DNA of 13,855 bases from the UHGV virus genome UHGV-0141996; one strand, given 5' to 3'. The stretch is from a virus. The notes beneath the pieces are model-generated. The model made no database searches, was not told the DNA's origin, and worked only from the letters and a program-made list of their open reading frames with translations. A program made the position numbers and the translations under genes. This document shows, in pieces, positions 50 to 12,584 of this stretch. Within the stretch, counting starts at the first letter, position 1, and every line of letters begins with the position of its first letter.

Positions 50-964
50 TTATGGTAAGTATTTAAGTATTTCTGCTGCCCAGTTTACACGGTGGATGAC
101 ACGGGCATGGTGCAAGTTTCCGTCTAGTATTTCGGCTTTAGTTAGCTGGGATAACTGCTGCCAATTATTGTTAAGTATATAAGTTGCGTTATTACATTGT
201 GAGCTTTCTAGCACGTAAATGTTTTGGCCTGTGAACCCAAATATCACGTAGCCTTGGAACCCAGCTTGCCCAACCGCTACGAAATCTGGTTTTTTACTAT
301 TGATAAGTTCAAGTCTGCCTTCAACAACAGCGGTATTGCCCTTTCCCCTGATCTTAATAGCTGAAAGGATTTTTGAACCGATAGTACTCCAAGGCTGTTG
401 ACCCTGAGGCAGGAGGCTCCAGTTTAGTTTTATAGATTTACTTTTAACGATGGTATTAAGTTGGTCGTCAACAGTTTCGCACAACCCAAAAAGCTCTAAA
501 AAAAGATTAATGCAGTGAGCCACTAACTCTTTGTTGTTAGCTGTCAAACTTAGCTTTGGAGAGATGATCAACTTCTCCCCTTGCAGATTCTCTACAATCT
601 TTAACTCTATGCTTGGTGGAGGGGTGAGGATTCTCTTGTAGCGCTTATACTCAATTTCACGAGTGTCAGTAACTTCTTGAGTTGCGCCCCCTCCGATCCA
701 TTGCTTTCTAGTCCATGAAATTTGTCTGTATGCAGTTTCTTTAGGTGCTGTTTTGTCAGGTACTGATTTGCCATTAGCATTGAATCTGGTTATTGGCCCT
801 AAAATTTTGGGGAGGACTTCTTCACCTAAAGCTCTTTGACTTGAGAAACCAATAGAGTCCGTTTTCCCCGCATCTGGCAAAGAATGTGCAATGTAGATAT
901 CACGGCCATCAAAGTTAGGTATGTAATTATCAATATTTCGAATACGCTTTTTCTGAATAAGCAT
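50..964 (-). CDS. Hypothetical protein, 304 aa, AT-rich orphan; no recognisable motifs
   Basis: Uninterrupted 304-codon ORF with ATG start and a good Shine-Dalgarno (AAGGA, 7 nt upstream on the minus strand). Composition is visibly more AT-rich than the central operon. Hairpin immediately downstream. No catalytic or family motif recognised by eye. Confidence 0.7.
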   Translation of the reverse strand: MLIQKKRIRNIDNYIPNFDGRDIYIAHSLPDAGKTDSIGFSSQRALGEEVLPKILGPITRFNANGKSVPDKTAPKETAYRQISWTRKQWIGGGATQEVTDTREIEYKRYKRILTPPPSIELKIVENLQGEKLIISPKLSLTANNKELVAHCINLFLELFGLCETVDDQLNTIVKSKSIKLNWSLLPQGQQPWSTIGSKILSAIKIRGKGNTAVVEGRLELINSKKPDFVAVGQAGFQGYVIFGFTGQNIYVLESSQCNNATYILNNNWQQLSQLTKAEILDGNLHHARVIHRVNWAAEILKYLP

Positions 965-1802
965 GGATCGTTCCTTTTGATTTTATCTTACTGTTTACAT
1001 AACCAACCAAGCCGGGCACAATCGAGCCGTTAGAGACGATAGTGAGGCTAACAATCGTTATGAGTTTGCAGACTCATGGCGGTCATGCTTCATAGACCGG
1101 ATTCACGCAGGTGACTCCGGTTTTTTTATGCCCATCATTTATACATGGGCACAACATATAGGGTGTGTTAATAAGATTACCCCCTACATGTTCAGCATTC
1201 TAGTTAGGATTCTTTGCAGTACAAGGGTTGATTTTGAGGTTAAATTGAGGTTGTCAAAGGGAAATTTCGACCAACCCTACGTGCCGTAAGGCTTAGGCTG
1301 TATGTCAATGTTTCAGAAAAAAAAATGAAAATTTGATCGAGTGCTGATTTCTTTAGCACGAGAACATGAGATCGAACCAAAATATTGCAAAGTTTTGAAC
1401 AAAACTTGAACTGCCTCGTGTCTCCATAGCCAAGACGAATGCAGTTTAAATAAGCTAAGTCAGCTCTCAAAAGTCCTTTATGACCCGAACCAAAAATTGT
1501 ACCTCTTAAACCCCACCGCAAGCGGCTCTCCGGGGTTTGTGCGCATGGAGTAATGCGGTTGTACTGGGTATGTGCGCACAACCCTCTACAAGCCGCATTC
1601 TACCGTTAGCCTATAGCTGAATCCCCGGCTTGAAAAATTGCACGCTTATGGTTGCCCCTCCCTCAACTCTATAGCTCGCCCGCGCCCCCGTGCGCATGTG
1701 CGTGCCCGCGCGTCAGGGGTCGCTGAGAAAACCCTAAGATTTTGCTCATCCGAGGCAACCGTTGCAGGCGCGTGTTGCCGAGGGCACACTGCCAGTGTTT
1801 GA

Positions 1803-1908
1803 TGGTGTCATCAATCGTTCGATTCTTGCTACCTTCCTGAGTGATTACTATCTGGTGTCATCAATTTAGGGTTTGACTAAATGCTACCACCAATGCAATG
1901 ATGCTACC
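1803..1908 (+). promoter_or_regulatory. Repeat-bearing leader/promoter region upstream of the serine recombinase gene
   Basis: Exact 13-bp direct repeat TGGTGTCATCAAT at 1803-1815 and 1853-1865 (50 bp centre-to-centre). ATGCTACC at 1881-1888 and 1901-1908, plus TTGCTACC at 1826-1833. TTGACT -35-like hexamer at 1873-1878. SD GGAGAGGTG precedes the ATG at 1940. Confidence 0.35.
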
Positions 1909-1939
1909 GTTTTGTGATACCAGACGGGAGAGGTGAAGC

Positions 1940-2515
1940 ATGAGGACTTTTATCTACTGCCGCGTTTCAACACGCGAGCAGGATACGCAGAATCAGGTGC
2001 TGGCTATTGAGCGTGCCGGGTACACGGTGCCTGAGAGCAGGGTAATCAGCGAGGACATTTCCGGCAGCGTTCAGGCTATGCAGCGCCCTAAGTTTCGGGC
2101 GATGGTTGAGCATAAGCTGGAAGCGGGAGATCAGCTTGTCGTGCTGAAACTGGACAGGCTGGGGCGCGACAACATCGACGTGCAACAGACCATCGACATG
2201 CTGTTAGAACGTGGCGTGAAGGTGGTGTCTCTTGACCTGCCAGCGCGTGATCTGACTTCATCTGAGGGCAAGCTAATCCGCCAGATGTTTGGAGCTTTTG
2301 CTGAGTTCGAGCGAAACCGTATCCGTGAGAGGACGCTGGACGGGCTGGAGAAGGCGAAAGCCAATGGCGTTAAGCTGGGACGCAAGGAAGCCACCGACAC
2401 CACTGAAAAGGTGCTGGAGTTGCGGAGTGAGGGGCTGTCTCAATCGAAGGTAGCGAAGCGTCTCGGCGTTAGCGTGAGCACCGTTAAACGCCACTGGAAC
2501 AAGGGCGAGGAGTGA
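1940..2515 (+). CDS. Small serine recombinase (resolvase/invertase family), 191 aa
   Basis: N-terminal YCRVSTREQ motif with the catalytic serine. LVVLKLDRLGRD and FAEFERNRIRERT blocks align by eye with gamma-delta/Tn3 resolvase. C-terminal HTH (SQSKVAKRLGVSVSTVKRH). Strong SD. Confidence 0.9.
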   Translation: MRTFIYCRVSTREQDTQNQVLAIERAGYTVPESRVISEDISGSVQAMQRPKFRAMVEHKLEAGDQLVVLKLDRLGRDNIDVQQTIDMLLERGVKVVSLDLPARDLTSSEGKLIRQMFGAFAEFERNRIRERTLDGLEKAKANGVKLGRKEATDTTEKVLELRSEGLSQSKVAKRLGVSVSTVKRHWNKGEE

Positions 2516-3215
2516 TGGCCTACAACCGAATGAGGTGCTATGACTGGCCGTTACTGGGCTGTGGGTGATGGATGACCTACAGCTTTTGTATTAATTTCAG
2601 AGGGTTATGTTATGCGTAATATCATAACGATATGATTTATAATGTATTTTCGTATTACTTGCGGCTCTCGATGTGAAGAGGTGGCGGGGCTTTAGCCGTG
2701 CCAGACGATGAACATCGAGATCAGATTGTGAATGTGATTCATCACTGAACAATTCGAGGGATGGGGCAGGGGAAGGGATCAAAGGCTGCGTTGTCCAATC
2801 ACTAAGCTAGATTTGAAGCTGGTCAACACGTTAGTAGTATCTTTAAAGTTGCATTTTAAATACATGTACAAGAAAGGGTTCTTCCCTTACATCCCTTCTC
2901 CTAAATGTAGTTACGAGTGCTTCGCTCTCTTCACTTGCTGCGCTTCTCGCTATGCTCCAGCCCGCTCCATCGCCTTTGGCTCATTCCCGGACTTCGCCCG
3001 CTGTGATGCTCGGCCACTCTACGCAACCGTGCTTGCCGTGGCAGGCAACGCGGCGGGGATGTGTAGTGGAACGGTACTCTGTATCGGTATGATTACTGTA
3101 TTCAATCACATACTGGTATCAGTAGGTATCCTTCAAAACATCTTCATTCATTTCTGTATCGTTCAATCATCTTTCTTGTTCGTTTCCTTTCAGGTCTTAG
3201 CCGTTGGTCATTGGT

Positions 3216-3330
3216 CTTACTGCCTGCTGTGCTACTGCCAGCTATGGCACGCCGTCACGGTCTACTGTCTGTTACCTGTCCTACTGCCTTCACTGTCTGC
3301 CGTCTGTCAGTCCTACGGTCTGCCATCCGT
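3216..3330 (+). repeat. Iteron-like short repeat cluster in a pyrimidine-skewed ORF-poor region
   Basis: YTACTGYC-type motifs at 3216-3224 (CTTACTGCC), 3231-3239 (GCTACTGCC), 3261-3271 (TCTACTGTCTG) and 3281-3288 (CTACTGCC). CTGTCTG-type motifs at 3293-3308. Tandem CATCCGT CATCCGT at about 3324-3337. The plus strand is strongly C/T-rich. Confidence 0.4.
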
Positions 3331-3778
3331 CATCCGTTCGGCGCTCGCTTGTTTCGGCTGCGCCGCGCTCGCTCTGCGTATCTAGCGATACTATATCACT
3401 ATAGACACTTTCATAATTATATAATGATTACAGTAACTTATGTTTTCTGTTTTAAAAGCTACTAATAAGGAGATATAGAGCATTACTTACCCGCTTTTGA
3501 CCGACAAAAATCGCGTTGTTAAGTATTGCCAGCCCAGGCTCAATAAGGCTTAGCGAGGTGGTGGCTAAAAAATGAGCTAATGAAGGTATCTACTAAGGAG
3601 AAAGAATAACTCCCGAAGCGCGACAAACTCTCCGATTTTGAAAGTGACTATTAAGGCAGATAAAGACACTGACACTGTTGCTGACATGAAAACTTCTAAA
3701 AGGGCAGAGAGTCTGCCGAACCCGTACCGCTGACCCAACCTGAGCTAATACCTACCCCTATTTTCTGGAGATTTCACC

Positions 3779-5623
3779 ATGCCAACAAACCTACGCCGCC
3801 TGCTTGCGCAGGCTGCCGACGCTGACCCGCTCAATACTGCGGACGCAGATGTACAGCAAATGATCGCTGACGGGATTGTTATTCGACGTTCCAAGATATG
3901 CCCTGTAAAGCGTAAACCCGTTAAGGCGGCATACAACACAAAGACCGAAGAGTTTTATTACAATGCAGATGGCTCCGCGATGACCTTGCGGGAGTGGCGA
4001 ACGCTGCACGGTGTTCAACCGAAGAAACAAAAACAGCGCTCTGACACTGGGTTGCGGCAAGTCATCCAGCCCGGCGACGCGATTCACTGCCGACGCGCTG
4101 AGATTGAGCAATGGCTTAATAAGAAGCCCGCTCGTTATGTTGACCCGCTGCCGCCAGATTTTCCCGGTGTTCGCGTAGACGATGCCGCATTGAAACCGCG
4201 CGAGCACGCCGTGCCGGAAGCGACAACCGGACAGAATGCTTTTCTCAAAGCCTGCCGCGAGTTCCTGATTTGCGATGAGAAGACCATGCGCCGTATCAGT
4301 CGGGGCATGAACCAAATGGAAGCTATGCGCAACGCAGATTTCAAACGCTACGGAGACTCAGGGGAGTTTCGTCAATTGTGGTGTGGAGAGTCGAAGCCTA
4401 CCGAAGATAGATTTAATAGTTCTAATCATCATTGTGACCCGAACGGCTTGGCTGCTTCGCCGTCTGTGCCGCCACTGAATACTGCACCGTATGAGTTCCG
4501 CCCGCTGGCTCGCTGTGACCGAAACGCACGCGTTAGCCTGCTGCCACCTGATGGGCTGGAGTGGAGGCCGGGGCAGTTGTCTGTTGCTGATGCGATCTTT
4601 TCCCGTGGCAGTGATGTGCTTGCCGTACTGCCGACCGGGTATGGCAAAAGCGCCGCCTTCACTTATCCATTGATTTATGAGTCCCGCGCTGGCATTGGCC
4701 TGTCTGTAATCGTGGTTCCTACTAATACCCTTAAGCGTCAGATTCTCCGCCAGTTGCGGGAGGCTGGCATTCACGCTGTGGCCTTTGGCGATAAGCTACC
4801 GAGGCACCGCAACGCACAACAACTGGCGGGACTAGCAGCCGGGGCGTTCCGGGTTGCTGTTGTTTCGCCTGAACATCTGGTTCCGTCGAGTCAGGTTCTC
4901 GCGGCGCTGATGGCTTATGGCGTTGATCGTTTTATTATCGATGAGGCACACACGGTCAAAGACTGGGATTTCCGCCCAGCTTACGACGCAATGCAGCACA
5001 CACTACAGAATGCTTTTCCCTCGGCTCAGCGCTGCGTGTTTACGGCTACTCTACTACGTGAAAATGAGAGCGGTTTAATGGAGGCGCTGGGATGCCGTGG
5101 CGATTACGTTACATTCCGTGCTGATGTTGCTCGCGAGAATATCCAGTTGATTCCGGTCAGGCAGTGCCGCCAGCGATACCGCGCGGCTGTTGGTCTGGTC
5201 GAGGCTCTGCCAGAGGAAGAGAAGACGCTCATTCTAGTCAATGACCTTAAGACGTTGCGGGCGTACCTGAAACTCTTCGGCGACCGGGCGCGCCCATATC
5301 ACTCGAAGACGATGCACCTGAGCAACGAGGAACGCCACGCAAACGCTGAGTGGTTTGCCTCTGCGCCGGGCGCGATTCTGATTGCTACTAAAGCCTTCGG
5401 GCTGGGTGCTGATGTTCCTGATATCCGTAACGTTGTCGTGACATACGTTCCCGATGACTTGCCTGATCTCGTTCAGATGATTGGACGAGCCGGGCGCGAT
5501 GGGGAACCTGCCCGCGCTTTTCTGCTGTGGTCATCGCTGGCGCTGGATGTTGCTCCTGATGAGCTTGCTTACTTCTACCGCCCTGAAAACTGTAACTGGC
5601 AGTACATCGCTAAATACCTCTGA
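3779..5623 (+). CDS. RecQ-like superfamily-2 DNA helicase, 614 aa, with a roughly 280-aa N-terminal region of unknown function
   Basis: Helicase motif I LPTGYGKSAAF, motif II DEAH box FIIDEAHTV followed by DWDFRPAY (RecQ-like), FTATL, and motif VI QMIGRAGRDG. SD GGAG 9 nt upstream of the ATG. The N-terminal region has no recognisable primase or helicase motif. Confidence 0.85.
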   Translation: MPTNLRRLLAQAADADPLNTADADVQQMIADGIVIRRSKICPVKRKPVKAAYNTKTEEFYYNADGSAMTLREWRTLHGVQPKKQKQRSDTGLRQVIQPGDAIHCRRAEIEQWLNKKPARYVDPLPPDFPGVRVDDAALKPREHAVPEATTGQNAFLKACREFLICDEKTMRRISRGMNQMEAMRNADFKRYGDSGEFRQLWCGESKPTEDRFNSSNHHCDPNGLAASPSVPPLNTAPYEFRPLARCDRNARVSLLPPDGLEWRPGQLSVADAIFSRGSDVLAVLPTGYGKSAAFTYPLIYESRAGIGLSVIVVPTNTLKRQILRQLREAGIHAVAFGDKLPRHRNAQQLAGLAAGAFRVAVVSPEHLVPSSQVLAALMAYGVDRFIIDEAHTVKDWDFRPAYDAMQHTLQNAFPSAQRCVFTATLLRENESGLMEALGCRGDYVTFRADVARENIQLIPVRQCRQRYRAAVGLVEALPEEEKTLILVNDLKTLRAYLKLFGDRARPYHSKTMHLSNEERHANAEWFASAPGAILIATKAFGLGADVPDIRNVVVTYVPDDLPDLVQMIGRAGRDGEPARAFLLWSSLALDVAPDELAYFYRPENCNWQYIAKYL

Positions 5624-5660: not shown

Positions 5661-6098
5661 ATGCCTGTTACCGAACATGCGCAGCGTCGTGCTGCGCGTG
5701 CGGATGCGCTCATCACCGCACAACTAGCCTTTGCCCTGAATGGGTACAACTGGGATGAACTGGCCGAACCTCATCGCAAGACCCTTAATCGTGAGGCCAT
5801 CATTAGCGAGGTATCTACACCGCTGGAGCGATATTGCCTGCTGAATGATTGCGAGCCGTGGGAGTGTCTGGCCGCTGTACTGAACCGCATGAAAAGGCCG
5901 GATGGCTCGCGTCGCTGGAAAGCCGTCCGGTTGTCCGACCGGGTTTTCAATGGCCGGGTGCATCCAGTGCGCAAGACTCCTGATGAAGTTTACGCCGCCA
6001 TTGCCCGCCGCTTGTTCCTGCCGAAGCCTGTGCATCAAGAAGTGATACAGCACATCCGTGCGCTTGGCTTGTTACCAGTTGGAGATAACCACCAATGA
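5661..6098 (+). CDS. Hypothetical protein, 145 aa
   Basis: ORF with GGAG SD 8 nt upstream. Stop overlaps the next start (ATGA at 6095-6098). Codon usage and GC match the operon. Confidence 0.6.
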   Translation: MPVTEHAQRRAARADALITAQLAFALNGYNWDELAEPHRKTLNREAIISEVSTPLERYCLLNDCEPWECLAAVLNRMKRPDGSRRWKAVRLSDRVFNGRVHPVRKTPDEVYAAIARRLFLPKPVHQEVIQHIRALGLLPVGDNHQ

Positions 6099-6304
6099 CG
6101 AAATCTGAATTTGAAAATGAAACATGGCGAATGAAGGGCTTGCTTCTTGGGGCGCTGATTCGCCGCCTTGAGGAAGATAAGGCTGGCGAGTCGCGCATGG
6201 TCGCAGCGGAGTTATCCAGTGCGGTCAACTTCCTTAAGGCCAACGCCGTAGAAGCACCGGACACATCATTCAACAACGTGTTCCCGGAGGATGACGAACA
6301 ATGA
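6095..6304 (+). CDS. Hypothetical small protein, 69 aa
   Basis: ATGA overlap with the upstream gene, GGAGA SD, and its stop overlaps the next start (ATGA at 6301-6304). Confidence 0.55.
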   Translation: MTKSEFENETWRMKGLLLGALIRRLEEDKAGESRMVAAELSSAVNFLKANAVEAPDTSFNNVFPEDDEQ

Positions 6305-7525: not shown

Positions 7526-8254
7526 ATGTCTGACCAGAATGTTAATCCGTACCTTTCCGGTGCTGATACTGCATCGCAGCAATCGCCGTACATGGCTGCA
7601 CCTGTTGGCGCTGACAATGGCGCATCTCGCTTTAGCTCTGCGCCTGCTGATGCTGATTTCCTCCGTACCCAGCCCGTTAATGGCAATGATGGCGGCCAAT
7701 GGAATAATGGCAACATTGCTAATCAGCAAGACCAGAACGCGGACAGCGCCGGGGCGCAGGTGGGCGATACTATCCCCCTGATGGATGGAACAGCTATTGA
7801 GTACACCGCCGAGCTACAAGGGTTAATGGGGCAGTTTCACCAGTCTGTCGAAAGCCAGCTAGGGCAGGGGACAGTTGACGCGATGTTGCAGTACGCTGGC
7901 ACACTCGACGCTGGGACGCAATCCACCCTTGAACGTATGGTTATGTCTGGCGACCCTGCGCAGATGCAGCGGGCGGTTCAGTACCTGCAAGAACGTATGG
8001 CTGCTGGTTCTGCTTCCGGGTACGTTCCTGCACAGGGAAACCCATACGGCCAGCCTGCCGCGCAACCTGTCGGAATGTCACATGCTGAGTTTATAGCAGC
8101 GTATGACCAGCTTTCGCAGTGGGCGCAGCAATCAGGGTATGGCCCCGGCCATCGCCAGTACGACGAACAATACCGTGCTCTGGTTGCGCAGCGCTCCGCT
8201 GGCAAACGTGCTGGTCGCTTACGCCCAACGGTGGAATGCGCCCTGCAAGACTGA
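7526..8254 (+). CDS. Gln/Ala/Gly-rich low-complexity protein, 242 aa; possible scaffolding protein
   Basis: Strong SD AGGAGA. Low-complexity Q/A/G/D-rich composition with predicted helical C-terminal half. Sits immediately upstream of the capsid-like gene region, as scaffold genes do in T7-like and P22-like head modules. The functional call is positional and compositional only. Confidence 0.4.
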   Translation: MSDQNVNPYLSGADTASQQSPYMAAPVGADNGASRFSSAPADADFLRTQPVNGNDGGQWNNGNIANQQDQNADSAGAQVGDTIPLMDGTAIEYTAELQGLMGQFHQSVESQLGQGTVDAMLQYAGTLDAGTQSTLERMVMSGDPAQMQRAVQYLQERMAAGSASGYVPAQGNPYGQPAAQPVGMSHAEFIAAYDQLSQWAQQSGYGPGHRQYDEQYRALVAQRSAGKRAGRLRPTVECALQD

Positions 8255-8993: not shown

Positions 8994-9989
8994 ATGGCCG
9001 ATAACATTTACTCGCCTGACCAGTTCCGCCCACATTATGGCGGGGTGGAATCTGACAATGATATTCACATCGAGGCTTATGACCGGGATGTCCAGACCCG
9101 TTTAGAGTCCAAATCCGTATTTCTGGCCGAGGGGCTGTCTACATACAGGCCGCTGAAAGCCAGCAACCAATACCGCATTGATCGCCTGAGTGGTGATCTT
9201 GAGGTGAAGGGCAGAACCGCAGGGCAATCGCTGGAGCCTACCGCCGTTAAGTCGGACAAGTTGGTTATCTCTGTGGATACGCTGAGCTATATCCGCATCC
9301 CGATTGACTATCAGGATGACTGGACAGCTCCCACCTTTCGCGCAGAGCTGAGCCGCAATATCGGTACTGCTCACGCTAAATTCTACGACGAAGCGCACAC
9401 CATCCAGCTAATCAAAGCGACTGACTTCGTACCGCCGCCGACACTGCAACCAACGTTTAACCCGCTTACGGATAATGTTGTCTCGCTCGACCTGACAGCG
9501 GGGAGCGAAGAGGATGCAGCTAACGAACTGGTTCACGCTATCAAAGCTGCTGTTAATCGATTCCTGACTGAGAAAGATATTCCGGTGGCGGAGCTGGTAC
9601 TGCTTATCGACCCGGCTTGGTTCAGCATCCTGATGGAACATAAGAAGCTGATGAACGTCCGTTACAGCCGGGATAGTGGCAACGATTACGCATGGCGTCG
9701 TGTTGGCTATGTCGCTGGGGTGCGAGTTATCGAGCTGAATAGTTACCCGCAGGAAGCCATTACCGGGCATGAACTGGGCGCTGATTATGACGTTACCGCA
9801 GAGGAAGCGCTGACGAGGGCGACGCTGTTTAAACCTTCCTCGGTACTGTTGACGGTCGAAGCGCAGAGCGTCATCAATCGCCAGTGGGATGATGAAAGCG
9901 AAATGACGATGGTGATGGACTCATATCGCCTGTTCAACGTTGGGCTGCGTCGTCCTGACTGCGTTATCAATTTCCGACAAGCTGCATAA
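8994..9989 (+). CDS. Putative major capsid protein, 331 aa, T7 gp10-like by eye
   Basis: Strong SD AGGAG. Length and block pattern resemble T7 gp10 from memory: KLVISVDTL..IPIDYQDD...RAEL..NIG.AHA and a C-terminal VLLIDPAWFSIL ... GVRVIEL ... LF..S.V.L.V block. No protease gene adjacent, consistent with a scaffold-dependent capsid. Confidence 0.55.
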   Translation: MADNIYSPDQFRPHYGGVESDNDIHIEAYDRDVQTRLESKSVFLAEGLSTYRPLKASNQYRIDRLSGDLEVKGRTAGQSLEPTAVKSDKLVISVDTLSYIRIPIDYQDDWTAPTFRAELSRNIGTAHAKFYDEAHTIQLIKATDFVPPPTLQPTFNPLTDNVVSLDLTAGSEEDAANELVHAIKAAVNRFLTEKDIPVAELVLLIDPAWFSILMEHKKLMNVRYSRDSGNDYAWRRVGYVAGVRVIELNSYPQEAITGHELGADYDVTAEEALTRATLFKPSSVLLTVEAQSVINRQWDDESEMTMVMDSYRLFNVGLRRPDCVINFRQAA

Positions 9990-10005: not shown

Positions 10006-10515
10006 ATGGTTAATGATGCTTACGCCCCTGAGCTGTTGCGATCCCTTTTCCTGTATGACCCGGTGACAGGTCGCCTGCACCATAAAGCTAACCGACGCCG
10101 GGTTAAGGCTGGCTCCTATGCTGACTCCACCCAGCGAGCTGATGGCTATCGTCAAGTTGCCCTGCGACTTGATGGCAAGCAGTACCAGCTAAAAGCCCAT
10201 CGCGTGGCATGGATTCTTGCGCATGGCGCTATTCCTCACGGTAAGCAGATCGATCACATCAACGGTATCCGTGACGACAACCGCCTATGCAATCTGCGTT
10301 TGGTTACGCAGCGGGAAAACGACCAGAACCGACGCAAGGCAAGGGGATATAGCTGGAATAAAGGCAGTAGCAAATGGGAGGCTTACATACGCGTTGATGG
10401 TGTACTCCGTCACCTTGGCTTATTTACTACCGAAGCGGCGGCGCGTGCTGCCTATCTAAAAGCTAAAGCCAGATACCATCCCTCAACGCCAGCCGATTTG
10501 TTGCAGGCTGCCTAA
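10006..10515 (+). CDS. HNH endonuclease with C-terminal AP2 domain, 169 aa
   Basis: HNH motif HRVAWILAHGAIPHGKQIDHINGIRDDNRLCNLRLVTQRENDQN. AP2-like segment YSWNKGSSKWEAYIRVDGVLRHLGLFTTEAAARAAYLKAKARYH. SD GGAGGGG. Confidence 0.85.
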   Translation: MVNDAYAPELLRSLFLYDPVTGRLHHKANRRRVKAGSYADSTQRADGYRQVALRLDGKQYQLKAHRVAWILAHGAIPHGKQIDHINGIRDDNRLCNLRLVTQRENDQNRRKARGYSWNKGSSKWEAYIRVDGVLRHLGLFTTEAAARAAYLKAKARYHPSTPADLLQAA

Positions 10516-10533: not shown

Positions 10534-10959
10534 ATGGCTGATGAAAAGCCGATTAGAGCGCTGGCAGATGATGACCCACGCCGCCAGCGGTACGCTGAAC
10601 TGATGGCGCAGGCTGGCCGCATGACTATTCCCCGACTGCATCCGGGCGATGCTAATAGTGTTATGAGCCAACTTGCGACGATGCTCGGCGCACCTGTCCC
10701 GATAGTCGGTGCTATGACTGAGCACGCCGCTGCATGGCGTGCCTGTATGCTGGAGCAAGGGCTTGGCGATCTTCTGGATGGCTTGAGTAAACAGGTGCTG
10801 ACCATCTTCTTTCTGCTCTGCTGGAGAGACAGCGCCTTGCGATTGGCGGGTAAGCAAAAGGAACGGCTTACAGCGGCCAGCGAGGGTTTGACCATTGAGC
10901 AATACCGGGCGATGCACCCGGCTTACAGAGAGAATAAAGAAGATGATAACCACGATTAA
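10534..10959 (+). CDS. Hypothetical protein, 141 aa, in the position often occupied by a small terminase subunit
   Basis: Strong SD GGAGG 8 nt upstream. Lies immediately downstream of the HNH gene. No recognisable motif; the small-terminase suggestion is positional inference only. Confidence 0.55.
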   Translation: MADEKPIRALADDDPRRQRYAELMAQAGRMTIPRLHPGDANSVMSQLATMLGAPVPIVGAMTEHAAAWRACMLEQGLGDLLDGLSKQVLTIFFLLCWRDSALRLAGKQKERLTAASEGLTIEQYRAMHPAYRENKEDDNHD

Positions 10960-11242
10960 ATTAAGGTGGCGGTACATCGAGCCGCCGCCAATGACTGGCG
11001 CACTCGCTGACCTGAAACAGTGGGTAATGGATACCGGAGAGCCTGAGCTGGAAGCTGAATTTCGTAAGCTGCTGGGGCTAATGCGCCGCAACGGTATCAG
11101 TGACGAACGCGTTAATGCGATGGCTGATGAGCTTTATGTTCTGGTTTGCCAACGCCAGTGCGAAGAATACGAAGCCTGCAAGCGGGCTGCGTCTGACAAT
11201 GGAGACTTTGAATCATGGTTACACGGACAGACCAACTACTAA
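10943..11242 (+). CDS. Hypothetical small protein, about 99 aa; start ambiguous (alternative upstream start at 10895)
   Basis: The ORF track starts at 10895 and overlaps the upstream gene by 65 bp. The in-frame ATG at 10943 (MITTIKLRW...) is preceded by AAAGAAG and gives a minimal overlap. Cys-containing segment CQRQCEEYEAC. Confidence 0.45.
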   Translation: MITTIKLRWRYIEPPPMTGALADLKQWVMDTGEPELEAEFRKLLGLMRRNGISDERVNAMADELYVLVCQRQCEEYEACKRAASDNGDFESWLHGQTNY

Positions 11243-11640
11243 GAAAAGCGATGCGGGACTATCTGGAACACCTCGGCAACATGCCGTTGGCTGAACGGAT
11301 TACAAATGCTGCTGTATTCGAAGATGTGTATCGCTTCCTGTTGAATGGTTCCGGTCGGCTGGAGTTGCGCCGCGCTGATGTGGCCGCTGTTCGTATCTTC
11401 CTGTGGAATTACCAATACCGACGCTGTGCGGTGACAGGTAAGCCGCTGCGCCTTACGTCTGCCGTGCTAGATCACTGCCACCGAACCGGGCGCGTGCGTG
11501 CTGTGGTGCATCGTTCTGCTAACGCTGCTGAGGGAGGCCGCTACGTTGGGCGGACGTGTGGTGTTAGCGTTGCGAACTTAAGGGCTATGGTTGGCAGCTA
11601 TCGCAAGCAATACACCGGTATTGGCGTGTTATATCCATAA
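11215..11640 (+). CDS. Endonuclease VII-like (HNH superfamily) protein, 141 aa
   Basis: Segment CAVTGKPLRLTSAVLDHCHRTGRVRAVVHRSANAAEG matches the Endonuclease_7 pattern (C..C-like ... DH.H.TG.VR ... N...G) with substitutions. GGAG 9 nt upstream. Last gene of the plus-strand operon. Confidence 0.55.
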   Translation: MVTRTDQLLRKAMRDYLEHLGNMPLAERITNAAVFEDVYRFLLNGSGRLELRRADVAAVRIFLWNYQYRRCAVTGKPLRLTSAVLDHCHRTGRVRAVVHRSANAAEGGRYVGRTCGVSVANLRAMVGSYRKQYTGIGVLYP

Positions 11641-11681: not shown

Positions 11682-12584
11682 TCAAACAGGAATGTTGTAG
11701 TAATGACAAATGGCATTAGTTAGTAGAGCTGGTGCAGCAGATGCTGCAATATTTAGCGTTCCCGCATATGCTTTACCAATCATATCACCAAGCCACCCTC
11801 CAACTTTTCCTCCTAAATTATCCATAGTGGTGGGCACTGGAGATTCTTGTATAGCTTGCTGAAGCGTTGTTATGTCTGCTTCTGAAACTCCCCATTCTTT
11901 AAGTTGTTTCTCCAGCGAATTAAAATCTCCTGCTATAATCGTGTTATTCTGGTTAATGTCTCCAGTATTCCCAGCACCAATACTGCCTGCATTATTAACT
12001 GCGCCATTAAAAATATTAGTATTGTTAACCGTCATAGGAGCGACCTCTTTTTCTGCCTGAGTGAACAATAACCCTTCACCCATAATCCCCTGTTTTTCTA
12101 ATTCAAGTGACCAATCAAGAATCTTGTTTCTTACAGTTGTGACTATGTGAGCAAATTTACCAGAACTAAAGAACCAGCATATTTCAGGTCTTGAATGTTG
12201 ATCGTGATATAACATTTCAGCCATTTCTAGTGGGATAGGGAGCCTTATATTTCCTTTTGTGCCCTCTGCTCGTATCATTGATGCTATAGATTCAGTGAGT
12301 GTATAAGTAGTAAACTTACGCATAATCTTTGCGCTTATGTTACCAAGATCAACTGGAATCCAGCCGTTGAAAGGGTTATAGGCTTTTAACTGACCGTGCC
12401 CAGTTCTATATTCTGGGGCTGATGCAATTGTAGGGTAGCCATTCAATTCGTGCTCAATCCAGCCTGTAACATCTTCCAGGCCAAGCTTGACGGCTATTAC
12501 TTTAGCTTTCATTAAAAGAGCGATAATATCAGTGTTAGGATCGCTTGCAAGAGCTTGAAGTTCAAGAACTGGTGAGTTAGCCAT
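11682..12584 (-). CDS. AT-rich cargo gene, 300 aa; putative AbiTii-like abortive-infection protein with Asn/Gly-rich C-terminal half
   Basis: Intact ORF with strong SD (TAAGGA 6 nt upstream on the minus strand). N-terminus (LELQALASD..IIALLMKAKVIAVKLGLEDVTGWIEHELNGY) resembles AbiTii-type domains as I recall them; unverified. C-terminal half is N/G-rich low complexity ending in a hydrophobic segment. Located between the integrase and the phage-like operon; markedly AT-rich. Confidence 0.45.
   Translation of the reverse strand: MANSPVLELQALASDPNTDIIALLMKAKVIAVKLGLEDVTGWIEHELNGYPTIASAPEYRTGHGQLKAYNPFNGWIPVDLGNISAKIMRKFTTYTLTESIASMIRAEGTKGNIRLPIPLEMAEMLYHDQHSRPEICWFFSSGKFAHIVTTVRNKILDWSLELEKQGIMGEGLLFTQAEKEVAPMTVNNTNIFNGAVNNAGSIGAGNTGDINQNNTIIAGDFNSLEKQLKEWGVSEADITTLQQAIQESPVPTTMDNLGGKVGGWLGDMIGKAYAGTLNIAASAAPALLTNAICHYYNIPV

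Follow-up and report, generated by a model that had tools for sequence, protein, structure and literature searches.

What is the role of a 1.26-kb stretch that appears to encode no protein and that lies directly in front of a helicase gene? The question is raised by positions 2520–3778 of the viral genome sequence UHGV-0141996, 13,855 nucleotides (nt) in length (hereafter the window, along which positions are counted unless a phage is named), for which a first-pass annotation had proposed a replication origin built on iteron-like repeats or, alternatively, a long non-coding transcript. Our analyses identify the window as most of one genomic island, and we consider it probable that the gap at 2520–3778 is the cis-acting helper interface of this integrative element of ~15 kb, which would act as a satellite of Bonnellvirus, a genus of virulent T7-like phages. 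The gap is composed of four parts: a putative structured RNA (2650–2902), an A-poor tract (2881–3385), a copy of phage left-end DNA that we refer to as the L-box (3212–3441), and a set of rightward promoter-like sites (3450–3656). The initial view of the region as cis-acting is retained here, as is the notion that its repeats and AT-rich segment are parts of one functional unit, both being located in or adjoining the phage-end copy.

The L-box is 84–94% identical to 15 phage records, all from the Autographiviridae genus Bonnellvirus (altidsur, aldrigsur, mellemsur, forsur, Kc261, ROV85, and others). The matches always fall within an unannotated interval of 1.5 kb between the endolysin gene, which is the last late gene and lies downstream of TerS and TerL, and the SAMase gene, the first early gene. 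This interval is the concatemer junction, the meeting point of the genome ends. Within the island segment lie a short-repeat array, a conserved GC-rich core, the phage promoter motif, and a single 20-mer box (3422–3441), and the homology of the segment to the phages ends at exactly base 3441 in all islands. Over positions 3272–3441, 168 of 170 bases (98.8%) are identical to altidsur and mellemsur, compared with 89–92% identity to three of the four sister islands compared and 97% to the fourth. Other islands (numbered L loci below) resemble other phages: the L-box of the island in Escherichia coli E2348/69 is closest to that of forsur, L018 carries a forsur-specific variant, and L016 and L019 share the ROV85-specific GCTCGAATCGG. 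The only other DNA common to island and phages is the capsid gene, at 65–78% identity. Since the L-box tracks the phages more closely than it tracks the sister islands, either phage and island have exchanged DNA repeatedly or selection holds the phage sequence in place, and in either case the islands and Bonnellvirus phages must meet and interact.

Which part of the phage end has been copied? Read rightward, the phage junction consists of a conserved right-end box, the terminal repeat, a conserved GGGTATCTGTCTCTTTT element, an A-free array of YTACTGYC-like units with a 9-nt period, the GC-rich core, the promoter-like motif, an AT-rich region with two 20-mers, three strong sigma-70 promoters, and the SAMase gene. 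The island copy spans the array through the first 20-mer. The left end of T7 is arranged as terminal repeat, SRL array, phiOL, the A1–A3 host promoters, and gene 0.3, and Bonnellvirus has the same element order, the array-plus-promoter part of which recurs in the island. The GGGTATCTGTCTCTTTT element resembles ATCTGTT, the class II pause signal of T7. Unlike phiOL of T7, the putative junction promoter of Bonnellvirus, situated at the left end, is directed leftward at the terminal repeat, and the island version has the same orientation. Compared by sequence alone, the island also differs from the ends of both T7 and Bonnellvirus in having neither the host early promoters nor the pause-like element.

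A second piece of the junction, here called the R-box, lies outside the gap. Positions 1623–1702 align with altidsur 10158–10235 at 77.5% identity and cover the right-end box together with the first ~39 nt of the terminal repeat. For the type phage J8-65, a direct terminal repeat of 259 bp has been annotated (experimentally), starting 73 nt after the endolysin gene, and in an alignment that includes J8-65 (A1), the position corresponding to the end of the phage genome is 1662/1663, at a distance of 5 nt from a mosaic boundary found in all islands. The 44 nt of the R-box are kept at ~91–98% in all 11 island loci compared, while the next 840 nt are swapped, and none of the non-coding elements in this family of islands is more constant. 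Both junction pieces keep the order and orientation that they have in the phage (1623–1702, then 3212–3441). Of a complete terminal repeat, the left boundary alone is recognizable. A right boundary at 3090, suggested by the resemblance of TGTATCGGTATGA to the final 13 nt of that repeat in J8-65 and by a coinciding mosaic boundary, was dropped, as the TATCGGT at 3082 is not conserved in other phages and the pause-like element is absent. The phage record glasur was likewise set aside as a source for the terminal repeat; it is opened inside the junction and contains no repeat.

The gap is neither rare nor confined to one host. It is present at 91–96% identity in 58 complete E. coli chromosomes, in none of which an annotated feature lies beneath it, and copies occur in genomes of Kosakonia, Kluyvera, and Enterobacter and in gut metagenomes; positions 1500–3900 have an identical match in one metagenome contig. 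A non-coding gap of 1–1.5 kb is found in every island variant compared. Around it the variants form a mosaic: 1624–1667 is retained in every case, 1668–2508 (recombinase) is exchanged for unrelated alleles, 2509–3090 is retained except for a swappable 2780–2935, 3091–3755 is variable, and the sequence from 3756 onward is retained. Such a pattern might be taken for a passive recombination scar, in which phage DNA was acquired during an abortive infection and the rest is decaying junk or a pseudogene, and both the variability of 3091–3755 and an open reading frame (ORF) broken among relatives would fit this idea. A scar would not be expected, however, to have a phage-like core with stronger conservation than the protein genes of the island and with independent renewal in different lineages, homology boundaries that are the same in all carriers, a second junction piece conserved 1.5 kb away, compensatory changes in an RNA segment, and a gap retained in every variant. 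We regard this explanation as the most improbable of those weighed here.

The L-box promoter motif belongs to a small set of sites in the phages. The sequence TTATGAAAG-NNN-CTATAG occurs three times, at equivalent places, in each of three complete phage genomes (altidsur 10752, 17184, and 31209; Kc261 41495, 5847, and 19775; ROV85 24078, 29534, and 2460). Two copies face rightward, one ahead of the replication genes and the other in the interval from the RNA polymerase gene to the structural genes, and the third, in the junction, faces leftward. All three copies in a given phage have the same central triplet, but each phage has its own (TGT for altidsur, CTA for Kc261, TGA for ROV85). The motif is laid out like T7 and SP6 promoters, with 13 nt, then TATA, then G, and we infer that it is the promoter of the single-subunit RNA polymerase of Bonnellvirus. 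We found no published promoter consensus for this genus; the papers on Kc261 and on the Danish wastewater phages give neither promoter nor terminal-repeat data.

In the window, a perfect match to this motif, with the triplet TGT, faces leftward within the L-box; island variants have TGT or CAT at this site. A transcript from it would cross the A-poor tract, yielding a purine-rich, U-poor RNA. Three further sites face rightward, toward the helicase gene, and share TGAARG-NNN-CTAnTAAGG. The first-pass annotation had drawn attention to two motifs resembling Shine–Dalgarno (SD) sequences that lack a properly spaced start codon. Both exist (CTAATAAGGAGA at 3462–3473 and CTACTAAGGAGA at 3590–3601, with the shared form CTA(A/C)TAAGGAGA, repeat family D12), but they constitute the start-proximal halves of the first two rightward sites and look like phage RNA polymerase sites rather than orphan ribosome-binding sites. 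The first site (3450–3470) is conserved in the islands of E2348, L016, L018, and L019. The third (3636–3656) carries the triplet of ROV85, forms an inverted repeat (I3) with the leftward promoter, and is identical in E2348 and L019. A loose motif scan returned four sites in the window, all within 3396–3656, against 0.8 expected in the whole window. Other variants carry related sites in other settings: in L014 and L017 a CTA-type site lies elsewhere and faces rightward, sites of this type being immediately preceded by a short part of the repeat array, and in L015-type variants an AT-rich segment is followed by AAAGGTGTCTATATTG, which resembles the promoter of the altidsur replication module.

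Are the repeats iterons? The YTACTGYC repeats noted earlier are real, with four copies at 3217–3288 and six in the window against 1.3 expected, a count that none of 200 shuffles reached. CTGTCTG is present as well but is not significant alone (four copies against 1.7 expected, with 18 of 200 shuffles reaching four). The tandem CATCCGT is located at 3324–3337, and the AT-rich stretch is confirmed at 3386–3480 (75% A+T). Tandem Repeats Finder, and ARAGORN for transfer RNAs (tRNAs) and tmRNA, reported nothing for the region, and the longest repeat families measure 14–23 nt at 74–86% identity. The array has a phage counterpart at altidsur 10560–10640.

An autonomous origin in which an initiator of the island binds the repeats, the AT-rich stretch opens, and the helicase encoded downstream is loaded would account for significant short direct repeats beside AT-rich DNA, directly upstream of a helicase gene. 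The details fit poorly. The units are 8 nt long with a spacing of 9–15 nt, not the typical 17–22-bp units placed on the helical repeat. The phage-end copy accounts for part of the array and for the beginning of the AT-rich stretch (up to 3441), and in the phage no initiator gene adjoins this DNA. The helicase, described as replicative in the first-pass annotation, is RecQ-like and of the SF2 type by Pfam (DEAD and Helicase_C), PHROG (DNA helicase), and its best solved relatives in the Protein Data Bank (PDB; RecQ and WRN, E = 2e-30), rather than a DnaB, SF3, or Rep-type enzyme; the island proteins scanned against Pfam and PHROG include no Rep-type initiator or primase domain. In addition, island variants with the same helicase exist without these repeats. 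The classic iteron layout therefore appears very improbable, if slightly less so than a passive scar. A role in replication is possible in another form, of the T7 kind, in which a phage promoter next to AT-rich DNA would act in a helper-dependent manner.

The A-poor tract explains the one long ORF of the region. The only frame of at least 100 codons in 2520–3778 is, as originally stated, 2813–3385, with a TTG start and a Cys/Leu/Val-rich product of 190 amino acids (aa), and the doubt already cast on it as a gene was well placed. Instead of being preserved as a protein, the frame is disrupted in relatives by several single-nt indels at 2930–3060, its 3′ third is homologous to non-coding phage DNA, and it has no Pfam match; on the grounds of indels, composition, and homology to non-coding phage DNA, we reject a protein-coding reading. 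The frame is long and its translation is rich in Cys, Leu, and Val because the tract contains 14% A and the stop codons TAA, TAG, and TGA all include A. The pyrimidine skew that had been ascribed to the entire region is real at 2881–3385 (64% pyrimidine, the most extreme 500-nt stretch in the window), but 2520–3778 as a whole is merely 53.5% pyrimidine and 2651–2880 is purine-rich. The tract thus seems to mimic the composition of the phage terminal region, yielding a false ORF. In the phage records, the A-free terminal-repeat region has itself received hypothetical-protein calls (Kc261 41017–41556, forsur_28 2130–2645, and ROV85 gp21–23 at 2088–2835), which probably are false ORFs that result from the absence of A and hence of stop codons.

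Upstream of the phage-derived DNA, the suggestion of a structured non-coding RNA (ncRNA) holds, albeit in a different sub-segment from the one first pointed to. Positions 2650–2902 likely encode a conserved, structured plus-strand RNA, a conclusion to which low sequence diversity lends moderate support. A TATAAT or TATAGT hexamer lies 8–11 nt before the conserved RNA core even where the DNA further upstream is unrelated (L017 and L020; alignment A3), and the core itself (2652–2800) is nearly invariant among copies from E. coli, Enterobacter, Kosakonia, and metagenomes. RNAalifold and explicit pair counting agree on a helix of 9 bp (2666–2675 with 2711–2720) with an inner stem on top, together termed P1. 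Two of its pairs show compensatory double changes, one from C-G to U-A in four sequences and one from U-A to C-G in six with one U-G intermediate; this covariation amounts to 10 cells, which none of 500 shuffles reached, and slid controls gave 0. In a long-range helix, G-tracts at 2758–2780 pair with a C/U tract at 2877–2902 and enclose a variable domain. Nine of its pairs alternate between GC and GU without a break and two more carry double changes, and the G-U pairs are compatible with the plus strand only. An RNA of the L016 type, in which the inner domain has been swapped, retains the same architecture (z = -5.6).

The fold conservation across homologues is limited to 2650–2902, and a covariance-model search, suggested as a check at the outset, matched no known family in Rfam 15, neither at the gathering threshold nor at E-values up to 5. 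A G-quadruplex in GGGATGGGGCAGGGGAAGGG was considered and is less favored, as the GC/GU pattern favors the long-range RNA helix. The inner domain (2786–2935 in the window; compared in L016, L145, L152, and L153 and in L013 and L044) is an exchangeable cassette that comes in at least three unrelated versions and has similar short direct repeats (TCAA[A/C]GG...) on either side; in L013 and L044, the 3′ part of the cassette is duplicated in tandem over 88 nt. As a guess, the RNA could be a regulator of the quiescent island.

The features of the gap and of its surroundings are collected in Table 1. In E. coli O127:H6 E2348/69, the complete island measures ~15.06 kb, about one-third of the 42 kb of the phage, and is delimited by a 31-bp repeat of the tRNA-Leu 3′ end, with the tRNA-Leu gene on one side and an HsdR gene on the other.

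Table 1. Features of the gap and of the surrounding island, with positions in the window.
Feature	Position	Strand	Basis or remark
304-aa protein, tRNA side of island	50–964	-	No Pfam match
R-box: phage right-end box CCCGGCTTGAAAATTG...CCTCCC and first terminal-repeat bases	1624–1667	+	Outside the gap, upstream of recombinase
Small serine recombinase	1940–2515	+	Pfam Resolvase and HTH_7
Terminator-like hairpin followed by TTTTGTATT, closing recombinase gene	2556–2585	+	Consensus scan
TATAAT box, putative sigma-70 -10 element	2638–2643	+	Read from sequence
Putative conserved structured ncRNA	2650–2902	+	P1 2666–2720, P2 hairpin 2724–2754, long-range helix
Conserved block A2	2936–3090	+	Inside A-poor tract; sharp mosaic boundary near 3088–3090 at its end
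L-box: homologue of Bonnellvirus left-end junction, after terminal repeat	3212–3441	+	Homology to 15 phage records
YTACTGYC/CTGTCTG short-repeat array (the proposed iterons)	3217–3310	+	Right part common to phage, where units recur every 9 nt
Leftward promoter motif, perfect match TTATGAAAG-TGT-CTATAG, predicted start 3399	3399–3416	-	Phage motif
Rightward promoter-like site TTTTAAAAG-CTA-CTAATAAGG	3450–3470	+	Contains first SD-like motif
Rightward promoter-like site CTAATGAAG-GTAT-CTACTAAGG, triplet TAT	3578–3598	+	Contains second SD-like motif; family D12
Rightward promoter-like site TTTTGAAAG-TGA-CTATTAAGG	3636–3656	+	12 of 15 consensus positions; 143 nt before helicase ATG
RecQ-like SF2 helicase, 614 aa, with uncharacterized N-terminal part of 260 aa	3779–5623	+	First gene of long plus-strand operon
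69-aa protein, weak T7 gp18-type small-terminase signal	6095–6304	+	PF11123, E = 3e-4, below cut-off
Head scaffolding protein, 242 aa (phage: 410 aa)	7526–8254	+	PHROG 1018, E = 7e-7
Major head (capsid) protein	8994–9989	+	PHROG 267, E = 3e-69; 56% identity to Bonnellvirus capsid protein
HNH endonuclease and endonuclease VII-like protein, after capsid gene	10006–10515 and 11215–11640	+
AbiTii abortive-infection protein, beside integrase	11682–12584	-	Pfam, E = 5e-40
Tyrosine integrase			Opposite strand from helicase operon, as AbiTii

What kind of element would maintain copies of phage genome ends? The island has an integrase and attachment (att) repeats, is far below phage size, and lacks detectable versions of most virion genes; portal, large terminase, and tail genes were not detected among its proteins in the Pfam and PHROG scans. 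What it does have is a set suited to redirecting packaging and assembly: a capsid homologue, a shortened scaffold (31% identity to the altidsur scaffold at the C-terminus), a weak small-terminase-like protein that has a short motif in common with altidsur TerS, and the helper-derived end sequences. Judged by homology, the scaffold, capsid, and terminase-like proteins look like a kit for downsizing capsids and redirecting packaging. The two nucleases may serve in concatemer processing or in an attack on the helper genome. Within the gap, block A2 retains 85–98% identity in island variants whose flanks have been replaced.

Some observations concern the recombinase and the left end of the island. 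The recombinase gene lies between the two phage-like pieces, and its alleles in L013–L015, L017, L020, and L176 show no detectable DNA similarity to it, with conserved flanks. One idea is that the enzyme may circularize incoming linear DNA via sites in the terminal repeat. Many E. coli chromosomes (the leuX region of CFSAN061761 and ~90 others) contain the left end of the island only, that is, the gene for the 304-aa protein, the right-end box, and a recombinase, followed by unrelated or decayed genes. These loci would be either remnants or a different element with the same left module. A 27,683-nt IMG/VR contig that could have been a packaged dimer of a 13.8-kb element was rejected, being a chromosomal fragment with one island copy, and a 15-mer scan of viral contigs gave almost solely chance matches.

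On this basis, we propose the following model for the satellite. In the resting state, host RNA polymerase would make the 2650–2902 RNA from the TATAAT promoter. Upon infection by a Bonnellvirus phage, transcription by the phage RNA polymerase from the rightward sites would turn on the genes for the helicase, scaffold, capsid, and nucleases. The copied left end, including the leftward promoter and the AT-rich box, could act as a promoter-origin in the style of T7, as part of a packaging signal, or as both, and the right-end box at 1624–1667 would supply the cut site for the terminase. The replication and terminase machinery of the phage would then copy and cut island DNA, and island concatemers would be packed into small capsids built with the capsid and scaffold homologues of the island.

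The same parts could serve a different end, and this reading constitutes the main rival. In a phage-triggered defense island, the copied promoters would be an infection sensor that switches on a decoy capsid and scaffold, the nucleases, and the helicase; the copied ends would be decoys for terminase or replication proteins; and nothing would be packaged. That a promoter-like cluster precedes the operon, that AbiTii is carried as cargo, that large terminase and portal genes and virion-derived contigs were not found, and that some variants do without the left-end copy all agree with it. Defense alone accounts less well for an element of about one-third of the phage size with a shortened scaffold and a capsid homologue, the classic downsizing kit of transmissible satellites, or for the finding that the most constant non-coding element of the family is a box spanning the point of phage end cleavage. 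Moreover, the same tRNA-Leu integrase module is present in four genera, suggesting efficient horizontal transfer. We therefore consider an island devoted to defense unlikely, though a good deal more plausible than either an iteron origin or a scar. Defense and transfer are not mutually exclusive in known satellites, and the two may coexist here.

Several points weigh against the satellite model. Homologies, conservation, covariation, and gene content are what we observe; transcription, replication, cutting, and transfer are deduced from them. The promoter assignment derives from motif position and triplet covariation in three phages only, and the rightward sites of the island deviate from the phage consensus around the start (CTAnTAAGG, not CTATAGTG). 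The two junction pieces are 1.5 kb apart in the island, compared with ~0.3 kb in the phage, and have the recombinase gene between them. The GGGTATCTGTCTCTTTT pause-like element has no counterpart in positions 1500–3900, so that the right boundary of a satellite terminal repeat cannot be placed. Variants L013, L015, L021, and L022 are devoid of the phage-like left-end segment, which is thus not indispensable to the island family, and they match no phage in the database; a search with the variant gap of L015 likewise returned no phage. No virion-derived contig with island ends was found, nor any literature on the function of the equivalent end sequences in Bonnellvirus.

How does the proposed satellite compare with known systems? 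SaPIbov5, an island with phi12 as its helper, is described as carrying a copy of the helper packaging site and a capsid homologue, Ccm, for small capsids (PMC8569155). Like such cos-type staphylococcal pathogenicity islands (SaPIs), the present island combines helper-derived ends with a capsid homologue (56% identity) and a scaffold homologue. In contrast to SaPIbov5, whose helper is a temperate cos siphophage, the island would use a virulent podophage of the T7 type that has direct terminal repeats and encodes an RNA polymerase, and what has been copied is part of a concatemer junction, including a putative phage-polymerase promoter, instead of a cos site. Unlike in SaPIs, a master repressor or derepression module is not recognized in the island. 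The cf-PICIs of enterobacteria encode their own capsid proteins (bioRxiv 10.1101/2022.09.08.507074). They possess a complete head and packaging module (terminases, portal, protease, and connectors) and take only tails from their helpers, whereas the island has just a capsid, a scaffold, and possibly a small terminase, with proteins of the T7 type.

A parallel with a strictly lytic helper is the PLE of Vibrio cholerae, a satellite of ICP1 that becomes active upon infection, takes over phage replication proteins, and alters capsids (PMC10945586 and PMC9410903). ICP1, however, is a myovirus that lacks an RNA polymerase of its own, PLE combines the phage coat protein with an external scaffold of its own rather than using a coat homologue, and there is no sequence similarity between the two elements.

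A different set of parallels is offered by P4 and by T7 itself. P4, at about one-third of the size of its helper P2, uses the packaging signal of the helper, redirects capsid size, carries defense cargo, and produces a small regulatory RNA, the CI RNA, from its own leader. The island resembles it in being integrative and about one-third of the helper size and in having defense cargo and a candidate regulatory RNA. P4 differs from the island in several respects: it has a primase-helicase of its own for replication at an iteron-type ori/crr, depends on host RNA polymerase throughout, and has no homologue of the capsid protein; its CI RNA is unrelated in sequence to the RNA of the island, which has no Rfam match. 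In T7, Chung and Hinkle reportedly found in 1990 that a plasmid with a promoter-type origin and a concatemer junction was replicated and packaged by the phage, an arrangement that the island may parallel.

In its most extended form, which we put forward tentatively and at somewhat less than even confidence, our proposal is that these islands constitute the first recognized satellite family of virulent T7-like (Autographiviridae) phages. Promoters with several triplets would let the RNA polymerases of several Bonnellvirus lineages induce the island; the refreshed end copy would drive replication and packaging in downsized capsids; and a new RNA of ~250 nt beside a swappable serine recombinase would control quiescence or the fate of incoming linear DNA. 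We found no description of a satellite of T7-like phages in the literature, our coverage of which is incomplete, and an earlier description may exist.

Fast and self-sufficient, T7-like phages serve as the textbook case of a lytic virus, and they are favored for therapy. If the satellite model is correct, other enterobacteria and common E. coli lineages, among them the reference enteropathogenic E. coli (EPEC) strain E2348/69, harbor an element able to sense, exploit, and probably blunt infection by such phages via the phage's own RNA polymerase and its genome-end signals. The island copy would also mark cis elements that are needed at the genome ends of Bonnellvirus, and the islands would hold a natural promoter set for orthogonal phage RNA polymerases.

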